NCBI GenBank assembly: GCA_038245905.1
Contig: JBBRRY010000028.1
Span: 1 to 53,707 of the forward strand
Reading direction: 5' to 3'
DNA: 53,707 nucleotides
Source of the DNA: Thermoanaerobaculia bacterium
GTDB taxonomy: Bacteria > Acidobacteriota > Thermoanaerobaculia > UBA5066
Shown: positions 5,117 to 29,683 of the stretch, piece by piece
Numbering within the stretch: position 1 is the first letter of the stretch
Layout of the letters: each line of letters opens with the position of its first letter
The notes under the pieces: generated by a model
What the model was told of the DNA's origin: nothing
Databases searched by the model: none
What the model saw: only the letters and a program-made list of their open reading frames with translations
Program-made: the position numbers and the translations under genes

Positions 5117-6104
5117 TCGAACGATTGTAGGCCGCCGGAGATTCCCGGAGGACGGCCGTCCGTGGGCCGACCGGGCCGAAGCGCCCGGGCGGCGTGGGCC
5201 CGAAGAGAGCGAGTGTGGGCGCGCCGGCTGCCGCCGCGAGATGCGTCGGCCCCGTGTCGGCCCCGACGAAGAGCGCCGCCCGCGCCGCGAGGCGCGCGGT
5301 GGACGCCGGCGTCGTCGGAGGGGCGAGGAGAAGAGGCGGTATTGAGGGGGAAAGAGAGGATGAAGAAGGGGATTTCTTAGAAAGGGTAATGAGCGCCTCC
5401 GCCCGGCTCTCTTCTCCAGGGCCCCAGCGGAGCACGGGTTGGATCTCCTCATTCCTCAGCCATCCGGCGAACGCCACGACGTCGTCCGCGCGCCACTCTT
5501 TATTCACCTTCGAAGAAAAAGGCTGAAGCACGGCGAAGGGACGCGACCCGTATCGCGCCAGCCACGCATCAACCACGGGGTCCTCCCGCTCGACGAGGTG
5601 CCGGACGTCCGGCGTGCTTTCGAAGCCGCTCTCGCCCGTCACGTGCTCGGCGAGCGCGAGCATCTGGTCGACGAGGTGGGGGCGGGCGGCGCGGTCGACA
5701 TCCACACGCTCGTCGGTGAACAGGCAGTTGATGCGTTCCGTCGCGGTGCGCCACCCGAATCCCACTTTCCGTCCGGAAGGCGCCGCCGCGGTCACGAGCG
5801 CCGATTTGAAAAGCCCCTGAGCGTCCACGACGAGATCGAACCTCGCGTCGGCCCCTCTTACCTTTCTCAGAAAATCCGAAATCCCCTCTCCCGTCTTCTT
5901 CCCGAATCCGGCGCGCCGCCATCCGCGCGTGTCCACGGGCAGGACGTCGTCCACGTACGCCGCGCCCTCGAGAAGCGGCGCGAGCGGCGGCTCGATCGCC
6001 CAGGTGAGGTGCGTACCGGGAAGCGCGGCCTTCAGCGCCTTCGCCGCCGGCAGCGCGAAGACGACATCGCCGAAAGACGACAGGCGCACGAAGAGGACTC
6101 GCAT
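5061..6104 (-). CDS. waaC: LPS heptosyltransferase I-like, GT9 family
   Basis: VRLSSFGDVV, DAQGLFKSA, GADTGPTHLAAAAGAPTLALFGPT. Confidence 0.82.
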   Translation of the reverse strand: MRVLFVRLSSFGDVVFALPAAKALKAALPGTHLTWAIEPPLAPLLEGAAYVDDVLPVDTRGWRRAGFGKKTGEGISDFLRKVRGADARFDLVVDAQGLFKSALVTAAAPSGRKVGFGWRTATERINCLFTDERVDVDRAARPHLVDQMLALAEHVTGESGFESTPDVRHLVEREDPVVDAWLARYGSRPFAVLQPFSSKVNKEWRADDVVAFAGWLRNEEIQPVLRWGPGEESRAEALITLSKKSPSSSSLSPSIPPLLLAPPTTPASTARLAARAALFVGADTGPTHLAAAAGAPTLALFGPTPPGRFGPVGPRTAVLRESPAAYNRSSGRWPFEDVRDAARRLLA

Positions 6105-6146
6105 CGGACCCGCGCAACCTTACCAGCCGTTGGGCTATGCTTGGAC

Positions 6147-6728
6147 ATGCTCGACTCGTCGGTGCTGGTTCTGAACCGCGGTTTCGCGGCCCTGACGCTG
6201 ACGGACGTCAAGCGGTGTTTCACCCTTTTTTACAAGGGCCACGTCCGCGCGGTCCTGCCGGACTACACGACGTACGCCTGGGACCAGTGGCAGGACATTC
6301 CCGTTCAGCCGGACGACGACGTCGTGACGACTCCGAACCTCGTCCTGAAGGTGCCCCGTGTCATCCAGCTCCTTTCCTGCGAGCGGTCCCCCCGCAACGA
6401 GGTCAAGTTCTCGCGCCACAACATCTACATGCGGGACGGGAACCGCTGCCAGTATTGCGGCAAGCGATTCTCCACCTCGGACCTCTCCCTCGACCACGTG
6501 ACGCCTCTCTCGCGAGGGGGGCCGTCCAACTGGGACAACATCGTCTGCGCCTGCCTGCCCTGCAACGTGAAGAAGGGAAACCGCCTCCCGGACGAGGCGG
6601 GTATGAAGCTGCGGCGCGTCCCGGCCAAGCCGCGGGGAACTCCGCTCGGCCTGATGTCGCCGCATCGGATCCACCCGACGTGGAAGAATTTCCTCGACAT
6701 GGCGTATTGGAACGTCGAGCTGAAGTAG
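6147..6728 (+). CDS. HNH endonuclease (McrA-like, HNH_5 type)
   Basis: From ATG 6147: VLVLNR..., FSRHNIYMRDGNRCQYCG, LDHVTPLSRGG, WDNIVCACLPCNVKKG. Confidence 0.9.
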   Translation: MLDSSVLVLNRGFAALTLTDVKRCFTLFYKGHVRAVLPDYTTYAWDQWQDIPVQPDDDVVTTPNLVLKVPRVIQLLSCERSPRNEVKFSRHNIYMRDGNRCQYCGKRFSTSDLSLDHVTPLSRGGPSNWDNIVCACLPCNVKKGNRLPDEAGMKLRRVPAKPRGTPLGLMSPHRIHPTWKNFLDMAYWNVELK

Positions 6729-6760
6729 CGAGCCCGAATTCACGCTTCAGGTATTGCCAC

Positions 6761-6776
6761 TGCACGGAAACGTGCA
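6761..6776. promoter_or_regulatory. Palindrome TGCACG-GAAA-CGTGCA, candidate enhancer-binding-protein site
   Basis: Perfect 6-bp arms about 100 bp upstream of the sigma54-type motif; resembles the NtrC-type TGCAC...GTGCA site. Confidence 0.4.
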
Positions 6777-6877
6777 GGGCCCGCCCCGGGGCACTCCATG
6801 GCCGCCCGGTGCGGATTGGCCCTAAACTATTCTAAGAAAAACAGGTTACCGGCGCGGACAGACGTTTGTCGCGAGCG

Positions 6878-6892
6878 TGGCAGCGGGGTTGC
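6878..6892 (+). promoter_or_regulatory. Sigma54 (-24/-12) promoter
   Basis: TGGCAGCGGGGTTGC has exact GG-N10-GC spacing with TGGCA and TTGC boxes, 60 nt before ATG 6953. Confidence 0.65.
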
Positions 6893-6952
6893 GCTACTGG
6901 TTTCGTCGGTCGCCCCCGAGCCGGCCACAGAAACAGGGGACTGGAGAACAAA

Positions 6953-7246
6953 ATGAAGAAGACGCTTTCCGCCCTCGTCGCCGTCGCCGTTCTGTCGCTC
7001 GGGGTTGCTTTCGCCGAAGAGGCGAAGACCTCCACGAAGACCGAAGCCACGACCACGACCAACCCGATCACGGGCAACAAGACCGAGAAGGCCTCGACGA
7101 CGACCGAGACCAAGGCTCATACCGGCAAGAAGACCACGAAGAAGTCGCACAAGAAGGTCACGAAGAAGTCCGGCGCCGTCAAGAGCGACATGACGAAGAC
7201 CGAGGCGTCCACAGCCGCCGCCCCCGCCGCCCCCGCCACGAAGTAA
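6953..7246 (+). CDS. Small secreted Lys/Thr-rich low-complexity protein
   Basis: GGAG SD, signal peptide MKKTLSALVAVAVLSLGVAFA, then a K/T/A/H-rich tail; own terminator follows. Confidence 0.82.
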   Translation: MKKTLSALVAVAVLSLGVAFAEEAKTSTKTEATTTTNPITGNKTEKASTTTETKAHTGKKTTKKSHKKVTKKSGAVKSDMTKTEASTAAAPAAPATK

Positions 7247-26431: not shown

Positions 26432-27168
26432 GCGCCGCGACGCCCGCAGACGGTGCGGGCACACCGCGGGTCGCCGTGGTCGTCTTTCCGGGCAGCAACT
26501 GCGACGAGGACGCGGCACTCGCCTCCCGGAACGTGCTCGGGGCGGACGTGAAGATGGTGCGGCACGACGAGAGCGCGCTCGGCGATCCCGACCTCGTGAT
26601 CCTTCCGGGCGGTTTCTCGTACGGCGACTACCTCCGGAGCGGGGCGATGGCGCGCTTCTCGCCGGTGATGGAATCCGTCGCGGCGTTCGCGGGGCAGGGT
26701 GGGGCCGTGCTCGGCATCTGCAACGGTTTCCAGATCCTGTGCGAGGCAGGGCTTCTTCCGGGCGCGATGCTGCGGAACGAGGGACTCCGCTTCGTATGCC
26801 GGGACGTTTTCCTGCGCGTCGAATCGAAGCGCACTCCGTTCACGCTCGCGATCAACAAGGGCGACGTCCTCCGAATGCCCGTCGCGCACGGAGATGGGAA
26901 CTGGACGGCCGAAAAAAGGGTTTACGAGGAGATGCTCGCGCGGGATCAGGTCGTCTTTCGTTACGTACGCGCGGACGGTTCGCGCGGCGAAGGAGGAAAT
27001 CCGAACGGCTCCCTCGACGACGTGGCGGGCATCTGCAACGTGAAGGGCAACGTCGTGGGACTCATGCCGCACCCGGAGCGCGCCTCCGAGGACCTTCTGG
27101 GCGGGACGGACGGCGCGCGCCTCTTCAAGTCCTTCGCGACGACGCGCATGGCGATGTACGGGGCGTAG
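26428..27168 (+). CDS. purQ: FGAM synthase glutaminase subunit PurQ
   Basis: FPGSNCD, PGGFSYGDYLRSGA, GICNGFQ, GLMPHPER. Confidence 0.96.
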   Translation: MSAATPADGAGTPRVAVVVFPGSNCDEDAALASRNVLGADVKMVRHDESALGDPDLVILPGGFSYGDYLRSGAMARFSPVMESVAAFAGQGGAVLGICNGFQILCEAGLLPGAMLRNEGLRFVCRDVFLRVESKRTPFTLAINKGDVLRMPVAHGDGNWTAEKRVYEEMLARDQVVFRYVRADGSRGEGGNPNGSLDDVAGICNVKGNVVGLMPHPERASEDLLGGTDGARLFKSFATTRMAMYGA

Positions 27169-27211
27169 GAATCGAACTGGGCAAATGGTACCTTTTGGGT
27201 AGAATTGCACC

Positions 27212-27484
27212 ATGGCGCTGAACATCAAGGATCCCGTCGCCGAAACGCTCGCCGCCGAAGTGGCGGAAATGGCGGGTGAAAGCAAGACCGAGGCGGTGCG
27301 CGTGGCTCTTCGTGAGCGGCGAGACAGGCTTGCTCTCTCGGGGGCGGCAGCTGCGAAACGCGAGCGCATTCGTCGCTTCCTCGAGGAAGTGGTGTGGCCG
27401 ACGATTCCGAAGAAGTTTCTCGGGAAAGGGATCACCAAGAAGGAGCGCGAGGCCATCCTCGGGTACGGCCCCCACGGCGTGTGA
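27212..27484 (+). CDS. vapB: VapB antitoxin (Rv0623/VapB30-like)
   Basis: MALNIKDP...GESKTEAVRVALRER...EAILGY. Confidence 0.88.
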   Translation: MALNIKDPVAETLAAEVAEMAGESKTEAVRVALRERRDRLALSGAAAAKRERIRRFLEEVVWPTIPKKFLGKGITKKEREAILGYGPHGV

Positions 27485-27867
27485 TTCTCGACCCGTCCGC
27501 GATCATCGCCATTTTGCTCAGAGAAGCCGAGGCCGACGAACTGGAGGCGAAGGTTGCCGCTGCCGCGGCGCTTGGTGTCGGGGCGCCAACGTTTGTCGAG
27601 ATGCTGATGGTTCTCACGACGCGATTCGGACCCGCCGCCGCCGCGCACCTGGAGGGGTTCCTGCAGCGCGGCGGTGCCGTCGTCGTCCCCTTCTCGGAGG
27701 AACACGCGCGTGAGGCAGCCGAGGCGTTCGCCCGTTTCGGTAAGGGGCGGCACTGCGCCGCGCTGAACTTCGGAGACTGCATGAGCTACGCGGTCGCGAA
27801 GCTCGCCGGACAGCCGCTCCTCTGCACCGGGCACGACTTCGCGAAGACCGACATAAAGCTCGCCTGA
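27481..27867 (+). CDS. vapC: VapC PIN toxin (VapC30-like)
   Basis: GTG 27481 overlaps the antitoxin stop; ILDPSAIIAIL, LNFGDCMSYAVAK, DFAKTDI. Confidence 0.92.
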   Translation: MILDPSAIIAILLREAEADELEAKVAAAAALGVGAPTFVEMLMVLTTRFGPAAAAHLEGFLQRGGAVVVPFSEEHAREAAEAFARFGKGRHCAALNFGDCMSYAVAKLAGQPLLCTGHDFAKTDIKLA

Positions 27868-27892
27868 GGATGAGTCACGGCTGCTGCTTGTT

Positions 27893-28228
27893 TCAGAGGT
27901 CGACCGCTGTTTTCACACCGGGGTCGATATCGGTCGTTCGTCCGCCTCGTGTCGTGCCACCCGCGCCGCCGGCGACCCTGTCGAGCTGGTCGTCCGAGAG
28001 TTGAGCCGCGCCGAGTGCCGGCTGCGCGGCGGGGAGTACCAGGAGAATCCTCGCCGTCGTTTCCTCGAGCACGTCGATCTGGACTCCCTCGGGCAACGAG
28101 ATCGCCAGTTCGCGCTGGAGGGTTCCACGAGGATCCGTGCGGAGCATCTCGCGAAGAACCGGATCCGTTGACGCTCTCTGCATGAGAATCTCGTACGGTT
28201 TGCCGGCACGCCAGGGTTGGTTGCCCAT
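27893..28228 (-). CDS. NHLP-leader (nitrile hydratase-like leader) RiPP precursor
   Basis: GGAGG SD; RA..DP..R..L..DPR..L......LP....I.VLEET....LLVLP leader ending LSDDQLDRVAGG; 23-aa core. Confidence 0.85.
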   Translation of the reverse strand: MGNQPWRAGKPYEILMQRASTDPVLREMLRTDPRGTLQRELAISLPEGVQIDVLEETTARILLVLPAAQPALGAAQLSDDQLDRVAGGAGGTTRGGRTTDIDPGVKTAVDL

Positions 28229-28321
28229 TTCCTGCCTCCATTCGGTGACTCGCGGCCGCTTGGGATCGTCGCGCCCCGCGTATTGAAGGCGAGTTTATCT
28301 GCGGCAGTGGGGTAACGTCCC

Positions 28322-29683
28322 GTGAAAAACATGACGCCGTCCGGGCTCCCTCGCCGCCTCATCGGCCTCCTCGATGCCACGGCGCTCGTCGTCGGCTCGA
28401 TGATCGGTTCGGGCATCTTCATCGTGTCGGCCGAGTCCGCGCGGCTCGTCGGAACGCCGGCGCGGCTCGTCGCCGTGTGGCTCGTCGCCGGGCTGCTCAC
28501 GCTCCTCGCCGCGAACGCGTGCGCGGAGCTCGCGACGATGTTCCCGCTCGCGGGCGGACCATACGTCTTCTTCAGCGAGGCCTACGGGCCGCTTCCGGGA
28601 TTTCTCTACGGGTGGACGACGGTGCTCGTCATCCAGACCGGCACGATCGCGGCCGTTGCCGTCGCGTTCTCGAAGTTCCTCGGCCTCCTCGTGCCGTCCG
28701 TCACGGGCGGCTGGACGAAGGCGGTGGCCGCGCTCGTCGTCCTCGTCCTCACGGGGACGAACGCGCTCGGGCTCCGGGTGGGCACGCGCGTTCAGAACAT
28801 CCTGACTGGCCTCAAGCTCGCCGCGCTTCTGGCTCTCACCGCCGGCGGCATCGTCTTCGAGCGGGCCCAGGCGGTGGCGGTGTCGATGGCGGTGGCGGGA
28901 GACGCGGCCGCGGCCCCGGAGTCCCAGGCGTTCACCGCCCTCGTGCTGGCCTTCGCGCTCGCGCTCGTCGGGCCCGCCTTCTCACAGTCGGCCTGGACGA
29001 ACGTGACGTTTCCGGGCGCCGAGGTCGCCGCGCCCGGCCGCACCTTTCCGCGCGCGCTCCTCCTCGGCTGCTCTCTCGTGGCCGGTCTCTACGTGCTCGC
29101 AAACGTCGGGTACCTCCGGACGCTCGGGCTCTCTGGCATCGCCCACGCACCGCAGGATCGCGTCGGGACGGCGGCGGCGGCGATACTCGTGCCGGGTGGC
29201 GGCGCGTGGATGGCGGCGGCGATTCTCGTCTCTACGTTCGGGTGCGCGAACGGCCTCGTCCTGTCGGGCGCGCGCGTCGTCTACGCTCTCGCCGCGGACG
29301 GCCACCTTCCCGCGGCCGCCGCCCGCCTGAATCGGGCGGGCGTGCCGGGTGTGGCGCTCGGCCTGCAGGCCGCTTGGGCACTTGTCCTCGTGCTCTCGGG
29401 CACGTATACCGATCTCCTGCGTTACGTCGTCTCCGTCGAGTTCGTCGTGCTGGTCCTTCTCGTGCTCGCCGTGCCCGCCCTCAGGCGCCGACTGCCCGCG
29501 CGCGAGCGGCCGTACCGCGCGTGGGGACATCCCTTCACCTCGGGCCTGTTCGTCCTCCTCGCGAGCACGGTCGTCGTCCTCCTCGCGATCGCGAGCCCGC
29601 GCACGACGCTGCCTGGCTTCGGCCTTGTTCTGGCCGGCATCCCGGTCTTCCTCATGCGGCGGGGAAGGGGACACGCGGGATGA
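28322..29683 (+). CDS. APC-family amino acid permease
   Basis: GSMIGSGIF, AELATMFPLAGGPYVF, many TM helices, ERPYRAWG. Confidence 0.9.
   Translation: MKNMTPSGLPRRLIGLLDATALVVGSMIGSGIFIVSAESARLVGTPARLVAVWLVAGLLTLLAANACAELATMFPLAGGPYVFFSEAYGPLPGFLYGWTTVLVIQTGTIAAVAVAFSKFLGLLVPSVTGGWTKAVAALVVLVLTGTNALGLRVGTRVQNILTGLKLAALLALTAGGIVFERAQAVAVSMAVAGDAAAAPESQAFTALVLAFALALVGPAFSQSAWTNVTFPGAEVAAPGRTFPRALLLGCSLVAGLYVLANVGYLRTLGLSGIAHAPQDRVGTAAAAILVPGGGAWMAAAILVSTFGCANGLVLSGARVVYALAADGHLPAAAARLNRAGVPGVALGLQAAWALVLVLSGTYTDLLRYVVSVEFVVLVLLVLAVPALRRRLPARERPYRAWGHPFTSGLFVLLASTVVVLLAIASPRTTLPGFGLVLAGIPVFLMRRGRGHAG

Follow-up and report, generated by a model that had tools for sequence, protein, structure and literature searches.

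The small gene considered here lies on the minus strand of a 53,707-nucleotide stretch of DNA from a Thermoanaerobaculia bacterium (contig JBBRRY010000028.1; the whole stretch is termed the window) and encodes a precursor peptide with an NHLP-type leader. Its closest described counterparts are found among the peptides that are made on the ribosome and modified post-translationally (RiPP) and the double-glycine peptides. The prochlorosin-type class II systems combine one ProcM-like LanM with many dispersed precursors. In the polytheonamide-type proteusins, a radical-SAM epimerase or other maturases are associated with the NHLP precursor. The unmodified double-glycine peptides exported by peptidase-containing ABC transporters (PCAT) include class II bacteriocins, microcins and signalling peptides. 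The NHLP families co-occur with exactly the three-gene transport set of TIGR03794, TIGR03796 and TIGR03797, according to the available part of PMC2887384. The selidamide-type GNAT acylates Lys1 or an ornithine of NHLP/Nif11-LanM products (available parts of PMC8784127, PMC13060382 and PMC13647313), and the ProcM clade is mentioned in that of PMC13060382. The gene in the window is regarded, with moderate confidence, as a functional accessory gene that encodes a satellite precursor of the single NHLP/LanM/PCAT system of its genome. The novelty lies mainly in a conserved tail of 12 residues; otherwise, this is a rare but fairly ordinary NHLP precursor.

The gene and its parts are placed as follows.

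27893..28228, minus strand: precursor gene, 111 codons plus the stop TGA (27893-27895), with an ATG start (from the open reading frame list and the sequence)
28235..28239, minus strand: Shine-Dalgarno sequence GGAGG, 6 nt upstream of the ATG (from the sequence)
27965..28228, minus strand: NHLP-type leader, residues 1-88, ending in LSDDQLDRVAGG with the Gly-Gly cleavage motif; the hidden Markov model (HMM) covers residues 15-88
27896..27964, minus strand: predicted core of 23 residues, AGGTTRGGRTTDIDPGVKTAVDL, the sequence after Gly88

The peptide belongs to the NHLP leader family. TIGR03793, the NHLP leader model, matches it with 56.3 bits (cut-off 50.9, E 2.1e-15), with residues 15-88 placed on positions 9-77 of the 77 profile positions, and the genome-wide search returns 56.4 bits for the same gene. 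The residues V85-A86-G87-G88 are invariant across 8 aligned NHLP precursors. The nitrile hydratase alpha models remain far below their cut-offs (TIGR01323, 20.1 bits), and the whole precursor protein is devoid of Cys, the active-site Cys cluster of nitrile hydratase being gone. The membership is supported by the model score, by the Gly-Gly motif combined with the loss of this cluster, and by the co-occurrence of the transport set in the genome. A first-pass annotation, made from the DNA letters, had described an NHLP-leader precursor with a Gly-Gly site and had named the HMM search as the check, which bears the description out. The leader end, the core composition, the 111-residue frame, the strong Shine-Dalgarno sequence and the strand opposite to the neighbours are also confirmed, both flanking genes being on the plus strand. 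The core contains 5 Thr, 3 Asp, 2 Arg, 1 Lys and 5 Gly, with no Cys, Ser or aromatic residues. Unmodified, it has a monoisotopic mass of 2257.17, a grand average of hydropathy of -0.44 and a net charge of about 0.

The GC contents at the first, second and third codon positions (GC1/2/3) of the peptide gene are 0.72/0.51/0.72, and the antisense in-phase frame gives an identical pattern. The composition does not single out the frame, and therefore the gene call rests on the TIGR03793 match and on the homologues. The frame at 27893-28228 (minus strand) is genuine, a small gene encoding the precursor of a secreted peptide. A core with Cys, reached by a frameshift, was also considered and rejected, the two other frames after VAGG having no coding-like GC pattern.

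The genome of the organism (G000) consists of 113 contigs and 3.80 Mb, with 96.4% completeness, and the contig of the window is C28. Four of its genes score over the TIGR03793 cut-off, namely the one on C28, a pair on C79 and one on C4. The two tandem NHLP precursors of C79 (2.9 kb) have Gly-rich cores that begin with Lys and contain one Cys. The Peptidase_C39 domain has a single match genome-wide, on C64, within ABC1 TIGR03796 (1079.9 bits; cut-off 853.3), and ABC1 is adjoined by ABC2 TIGR03797 (893.8 bits; cut-off 709.4). HlyD TIGR03794 is over the cut-off and split between two contig ends, on C64 (203 bits) and C87 (118 bits), the latter also encoding a TolC-like outer-membrane protein. The sole LanM match, with DUF4135 and LANC_like, is on C74 (3.7 kb, open at both ends; TIGR03897 580.9 bits, cut-off 304). 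The first-pass annotation had described the window as having no maturase or transporter gene, and this agrees with the genome-wide searches, which place C39 on C64 and LanM on C74. Any processing must act in trans, as the annotation had also held, the machinery being on other contigs. On the other hand, the label 'orphan' holds for the window only, since the genome has a full NHLP export set, a LanM-GNAT and further precursors. A genome devoid of RiPP maturase or transporter had been named as a sign of a relic; it was looked for, and both an exporter and a LanM were found.

The same components form a contiguous cluster in G045, a related Acidobacteriota metagenome-assembled genome (MAG) reached through the tail-pattern scan described below. 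On its contig of 2.98 Mb, about 20 kb of one strand encode a sigma-54 activator, two NHLP precursors, a LanM-GNAT of 1361 residues, OEP, HlyD, ABC1 and the FHA-ABC2. BLASTN of this region against G000 places C113, C64, C87, C96, C74, C79, C109, C89 and C11 collinearly, with 66-79% identity. The collinear placement of the fragments indicates that G000 has the same cluster, broken by assembly. The G045 cores also begin with Lys, contain one Cys and have in common with the C79 cores a C-terminal stretch of the alignment. Across the genus, ABC1 is over the cut-off in 5 of the 29 genomes and LanM in 6 of the 29, and NHLP matches occur in 4 of the 41 genomes searched (G000 included), all four with both ABC1 and LanM.

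In both G000 (L022:1-3702, minus strand) and G045 (L058:15910-19998, minus strand), the LanM is extended at its C-terminus by about 320-360 residues that give GNAT matches. This part is similar to GNATs that stand alone with about 300 residues (Atlas score 0.98), and it looks like a tandem GNAT. The cyclase domains of the two LanMs carry the WCHG and CCG motifs, the latter a mark of the substrate-tolerant ProcM clade. No mention of a LanM-GNAT fusion is made in the available parts of PMC8784127, PMC13060382 and PMC13647313. By analogy, the main cluster resembles the nostolysamide/selidamide type, with the GNAT fused to LanM, and this fused cluster is probably a more interesting object than the satellite peptide.

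Some further features of these genes are recorded. The ABC2 proteins (C64, L019:626-3982, minus strand; G045, L058:4970-8332) are extended at the N-terminus by about 420 residues, in which an FHA domain lies (57-59 bits). Phosphothreonine is the ligand of FHA domains, and phosphorylated Ser/Thr is an intermediate of the LanM reaction. The gene C79:177-1667 (L009), directly upstream of the two main NHLP precursors, encodes a protein of 496 residues whose N-terminal domain is a HAD hydrolase; such a protein is found at the same place in G045 (BLASTN 66% identity), and its C-terminal 300 residues match no family. At C4:68802-69164 (L007:9803-10165, minus strand) lies the fourth NHLP precursor, whose core consists of QQLGG-like repeats and lacks Cys. 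It is overlapped immediately downstream by the gene for a class I SAM methyltransferase (L007:9037-9864), whose best named NCBIfam matches are weak, including a daptide-type RiPP methyltransferase at 25.7 bits (cut-off 175). A six-frame motif scan of the genome gave 8 matches, 5 of them plausible peptides (C28, both of C79, C44 and C46); two others lie inside larger frames and are not peptides, one has more than 90 residues after the motif, and the C4 gene was missed. The C46 peptide (C46:18911-19285, minus strand) has a short Gly-Gly leader and a Cys-free, Lys/Asp/Ala-rich core of 27 residues. The C44 peptide (C44:20654-20911, plus strand, with the contig end 130 nt away) has a short Gly-Gly leader and a Ser/Cys-containing core of 26 residues, and from this composition could be a true lanthipeptide substrate.

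The part of the satellite peptide that is shared with other organisms is the end of the core.

27896..27931, minus strand: conserved C-terminal dodecapeptide DIDPGVKTAVDL, shared with P0002, P0004, P0165, P0168/L053 and L052

The tail family comprises six peptides in all, with NHLP, short Gly-Gly and unrelated leaders, and ends in the motif DI[D/N]xGVKxA[V/I]DL followed by the stop (the first position is G in one member). An exhaustive phmmer search with the precursor gave 1739 matches at E <= 0.001, and just two of them align over the full length: P0002 (110 residues, 52% identity) and P0004 (111 residues, 48%), both singletons, on contigs of 1536 and 888 bp. In both, the WxAG motif of the N-terminal region is retained, as is the tail I-[D/N]-x-G-V-K-x-A-[V/I]-D-L. 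A profile search added P0165 (contig of at most 3007 bp), a 65-residue peptide with a short non-NHLP leader ending in LSDAELDAVAGG and the core TGGTTRTPRTNDIDAGVKRAVDL. The back-translated tail with its stop was then scanned as a pattern across one genome per species (596 Gb; about 1 chance match estimated) and was found in 3 places: one by chance, one in G045 and one in the Methylomirabilis MAG G046. The chance place (L051) was rejected, having Phe in place of Leu and stops immediately upstream. The G045 peptide has 65 residues and the core AGGTTRAPRTNDIDTGVKTAIDL, identical to P0168. In G046 (locus L052), a small frame ends in ...LIKGG-AVKDIDQGVKRAVDL, with neither Ser nor Thr in the core. 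Cys is also absent from P0002, P0004, P0165, L053 and L052. The word-index protein search with the whole precursor found no match except itself, the protein search with P0165 found P0168 as sole match, and the three-member alignment searched against contigs gave 2 genome and 3 metagenome loci, all generic NHLP genes, with the tail in none. A full-text literature search for 8-residue tail strings, whose reach leaves out supplements and most subscription journals, gave no match, and as far as such searches go the core family is apparently not in print.

The G045 orthologue occupies the same locus, divergent from the permease and downstream of purQ, and has a different, short leader. The flanks of the two loci are 68-72% identical, and the homology of the peptide genes is limited to the last 129 nt (76.7%), which are the codons from QLSD to the stop; the leaders upstream are unrelated. 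The conserved unit is consequently the part after the Gly-Gly, above all the tail. Between these orthologues the ratio of nonsynonymous to synonymous substitutions (dN/dS) of the core is 0.16 at a dS of 0.82 (Nei-Gojobori, 23 codons) and that of the last 12 codons is 0.07, figures that are crude for so few sites. By this comparison, the core appears to be under purifying selection. The variable half of the core is the Thr/Arg-rich N-terminal half. The mirror-symmetric TTRGGRTT pointed out in the first-pass annotation is present in this half and is probably due to chance, since the relatives do not keep it and read TTRAPRTN and TTRTPRTN.

The occurrence of the same core behind the short non-NHLP leaders of P0165, P0168 and L052 indicates that the conserved unit is the part after the Gly-Gly and not the NHLP fold. 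It also bears on the possibility of a non-secreted cytoplasmic protein with the NHLP fold, such as a decoy or regulator of the LanM or the transporter. Such a role would suit an NHLP domain that is a folded remnant of nitrile hydratase alpha, as the residual TIGR01323 score suggests, and a core that is short and hydrophilic. The exchange of leaders and the retention of a canonical Gly-Gly motif make it highly improbable.

With the satellite precursor as the preferred reading, the following mechanism is proposed. The NHLP leader of 88 residues, and in particular its C-terminal LSDxxLxxVAGG, would present the peptide to the machinery encoded on the other contigs. The ABC transporter TIGR03796 would cut after Gly88 through its C39 peptidase domain and, together with the TIGR03797 FHA-ABC partner, the HlyD adaptor and the outer-membrane channel, would export the hydrophilic peptide of 23 residues. 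Some of the five Thr residues of the core may be dehydrated to dehydrobutyrine by the ProcM-like LanM before export; a (methyl)lanthionine ring cannot form, as the core lacks Cys. Export of the unmodified peptide is equally possible. The biological activity, as a signal or by target binding, would most likely be carried by the dodecapeptide and not by the Thr/Gly/Arg-rich half. The predicted complex of the C39 domain with residues 60-111 of the precursor reached an ipSAE of 0.43, the best of 3 controls being 0.00; at least 75% of the contacts agree among the three runs and the partner pLDDT is at least 46. When this score was calibrated, 51 of 78 solved complexes and 2 of 108 mismatched pairs reached the mark, and only 5 of the 78 did so at <=0.60. 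The prediction gives weak support to binding of the precursor by C39, and its pass may reflect likeness only, because PCAT-substrate complexes are already solved.

The three genomes that carry the tail differ in their LanM. G046 has C39 transporters and no LanM, and both LanM carriers (G000 and G045) are among the cores with Thr/Ser-rich N-terminal halves. These three genomes, few as they are, hint that the Thr-rich half may relate to LanM and that the tail does not. No neighbouring gene common to the three contexts was found. In G046, the small frame at L052:7232-7402 is followed by an overlapping or abutting gene (5788-7242, minus strand) for a 483-residue protein with a weak Peptidase_C13 (legumain-like) match of 37.4 bits. 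This protein was considered as a shared maturase and rejected, with no match in G000 or G045.

As to the chemistry of the core, the exclusion of thioether and thiazole formation by the first-pass annotation is sound, no Cys being present. The description of a Cys-free core as unusual is not sustained: among the 150 best NHLP relatives of the exhaustive search, the leader end could be parsed in 115, and 48 of these 115 cores have no Cys. In the same sense, only 'over 60%' of LanM-adjacent NHLPs contain Cys according to the available part of Haft et al. 2010 (PMC2887384). Acylation, another of the earlier suggestions, is possible in principle because LanM carries a GNAT; the site is less favourable, as the Lys is at core position 18 and not N-terminal. 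A selidamide-like route would extend this suggestion, with LanM dehydrating Thr and the fused GNAT acylating Lys106 to give a linear, dehydrobutyrine-containing lipopeptide. The GNAT extension in both genomes, its resemblance to stand-alone GNATs and the Lys of GVK (Lys106), invariant in 6 of 6 family members, speak for this route. In addition, the side chains of Lys or Orn are acylated by the GNATs of NHLP/Nif11-LanM clusters, some of which are acidobacterial (available parts of PMC8784127 and PMC13060382). On the other hand, the characterised enzymes act at core position 1, and KspN favours N-terminal positions, with less than 50% conversion elsewhere (available part of PMC13647313). The main-cluster precursors start with Lys1 and the satellite core with Ala, and G046 keeps the tail motif with no LanM. 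The selidamide-like route is thus considered unlikely.

The first-pass annotation had proposed an undescribed RiPP made by an unrecognised trans-acting maturase, for instance with Thr-Asp omega-esters or an Arg-to-Orn conversion. The conservation of the core under purifying selection is in line with such a product, the Thr, Asp, Arg and Lys residues could in principle be crosslinked or converted, and an enzyme could still be encoded remotely even though the three contexts share no neighbour. The expected enzymes were not encountered. For the omega-ester crosslinks, RimK-type ATP-grasp PF08443, the only ATP-grasp model used, has no match at E <= 0.001 in G000 or G045, with a control positive in 13 of 14 genomes. 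For the arginase chemistry, peptide arginase PF12640 has no match in G000, G045 or G046, a weak negative because the control gave no match anywhere. Both chemistries are consequently left without an enzyme. YcaO (PF02624) and SPASM have no match in the 96% complete genome. The 24 radical-SAM matches of this genome adjoin no Gly-Gly-leader peptide gene, and none is on C28, C79, C74, C87, C64, C44, C46 or C4. Furthermore, the Thr/Arg-rich half on which such chemistry would act is the variable one, and the G046 version has no Ser or Thr. An undescribed maturase is therefore given little probability.

The immediate surroundings of the peptide gene are occupied by genes that stand outside the peptide system.

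27212-27484, plus strand: vapB-like gene (Rv0623-like antitoxin; Pfam PSK_trans_fac 68.6 bits), context
27481-27867, plus strand: PIN/vapC gene (PIN 63 bits), the cassette being convergent with the peptide gene, context
28322-29683, plus strand: amino-acid permease gene (Pfam AA_permease_2 139 bits), divergent from the peptide gene, with 93 nt between the two, context

The gene order around the locus is purS, purQ, vapBC, the peptide gene, the permease, pxpB/C/A and purL. A scan with purQ yielded matches of no more than 61% identity, for the most part in Acidobacteria MAGs, and these did not place the genome. The vapBC pair comes directly after purQ, and together with the peptide gene, the permease and pxpBCA it separates purS-purQ from purL. 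The space between vapC and the permease (27868-28321, compared with L040-L045) is a variable spot in the genus and contains the peptide gene, among the matches listed, in G000 only; six congeners have genes for an RsgA-like GTPase, a ferredoxin-metallo-beta-lactamase (MBL) or a methyltransferase instead. The vapBC cassette is at the same place in several congeners that have no peptide gene, and is missing from G045, where a ferredoxin-MBL gene stands behind the peptide gene. The GC content is 0.63-0.66 from about 26.6 to 28.4 kb (one interval at 0.69), against about 0.69-0.75 in the surroundings. No Rfam match at E <= 0.1 is present in 27000-29000. Contigs of 4 other runs cover the flanks of the peptide gene, and on the gene itself just the bin of the leader-core junction (27948-28001), with traces in X6. 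In that run, a single contig links 27867 with 28355, the content in between being unspecified. This coverage as a whole is taken as evidence neither for nor against expression.

Several observations weigh against the reading as a functional satellite precursor. The leader is 34-35% identical to the own precursors of the main cluster in the alignment of 8 NHLP precursors, and for this reason its recognition by LanM is putative. The tail motif is independent of LanM, because G046 carries it with no LanM. The core is hydrophilic and uncharged overall, unlike the typical pore-forming double-glycine bacteriocins, and no immunity gene is evident beside the peptide gene. No RNA evidence of expression is listed among the 13 runs, and neither a sigma-70-like promoter nor an intrinsic terminator was matched in 27600-28600, where the shuffled controls also gave about 0. 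In the other 28 genus genomes, 27869-28329 has no DNA match among the matches listed, which cover the flanks at 73-90%. Finally, the GC3 of the gene is lower than that of its neighbours (0.72 versus 0.89 in the permease), which is compatible with recent acquisition or with weak selection on codon usage.

The last three of these points, together with the variable spot between vapC and the permease, are also those expected of a decaying or silent relic, that is, a stranded copy of a precursor that has lost expression or processing. Decay is difficult to reconcile with the intact frame and the strong Shine-Dalgarno sequence, with the low dN/dS of the core against the same-locus orthologue, and with P0002 and P0004, which over their full length (48-52% identity) keep the WxAG motif and the tail. 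A relic is accordingly judged improbable, and the satellite precursor remains the preferred reading.

A broader proposal can be made for the family. The DI[D/N]xGVKxA[V/I]DL peptides of Acidobacteriota and Methylomirabilota would be an undescribed secreted family, in which the dodecapeptide is the active module recombined behind different leaders; in the LanM-GNAT carriers, the Thr/Ser-rich segment would be dehydrated and the Lys perhaps acylated, yielding a ring-free, dehydrobutyrine-containing product of a lanthipeptide synthetase. This proposal is speculative and is held as a minor possibility. The cores behind NHLP leaders are normally hypervariable, and the core of the tail family is conserved and moves between leader types and phyla, which indicates a sequence-specific activity such as a signal or target binding. 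For genome mining, the locus illustrates how a precursor that appears as an orphan in a MAG window is explained by a cluster shattered over small contigs, and how such apparent orphans are resolved when the leader model is used and the export set is sought across the whole genome. As a natural substrate that lacks Cys, the peptide also makes it possible to ask how a ProcM-like LanM-GNAT treats Thr-rich cores.

Compared with the known systems, the locus shares with the NHLP/NHLM export systems (TIGR03793 with TIGR03794/03796/03797; available part of PMC2887384) the leader model, the Gly-Gly, the several paralogues, the short core and the transport set. It departs from them in that the satellite gene is on a contig other than that of the cluster, the core is conserved and not hypervariable, and the family uses other leaders too. 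The peptide is not a polytheonamide-type proteusin, because no associated radical-SAM enzyme was found in the genome, nor a strict lanthipeptide precursor, because it has no Cys despite the LanM. Similarly, it is not a graspetide, as no ATP-grasp was found with PF08443, and not a thiazole/oxazole-modified microcin, as no YcaO was found. The prochlorosin-type class II systems are similar in the single LanM with WCHG/CCG, the six dispersed Gly-Gly-leader peptides and the C39 exporter of the same genome, and differ in that the satellite core is Cys-free, so that no lanthionine can form and dehydration is the most that could occur. With the selidamides and nostolysamides (available parts of PMC8784127, PMC13060382 and PMC13647313), the main cluster shares the Lys-first NHLP cores, the ProcM-like LanM, the GNAT and the PCAT; the differences are a GNAT fused to LanM, no PF12640 found (with the silent control) and a satellite core with Ala1 and its sole Lys at position 18. 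The unmodified PCAT double-glycine peptides have in common the Gly-Gly leader, the C39 ABC exporter with HlyD and outer-membrane channel, and the lack of an adjoining maturase, whereas the long NHLP leader, the hydrophilic core with a net charge of about 0 and the lack of an evident immunity or receptor gene beside it set the present peptide apart. By analogy with these systems, the peptide would work most like a dispersed prochlorosin-like or selidamide-like substrate, or like an unmodified PCAT cargo.

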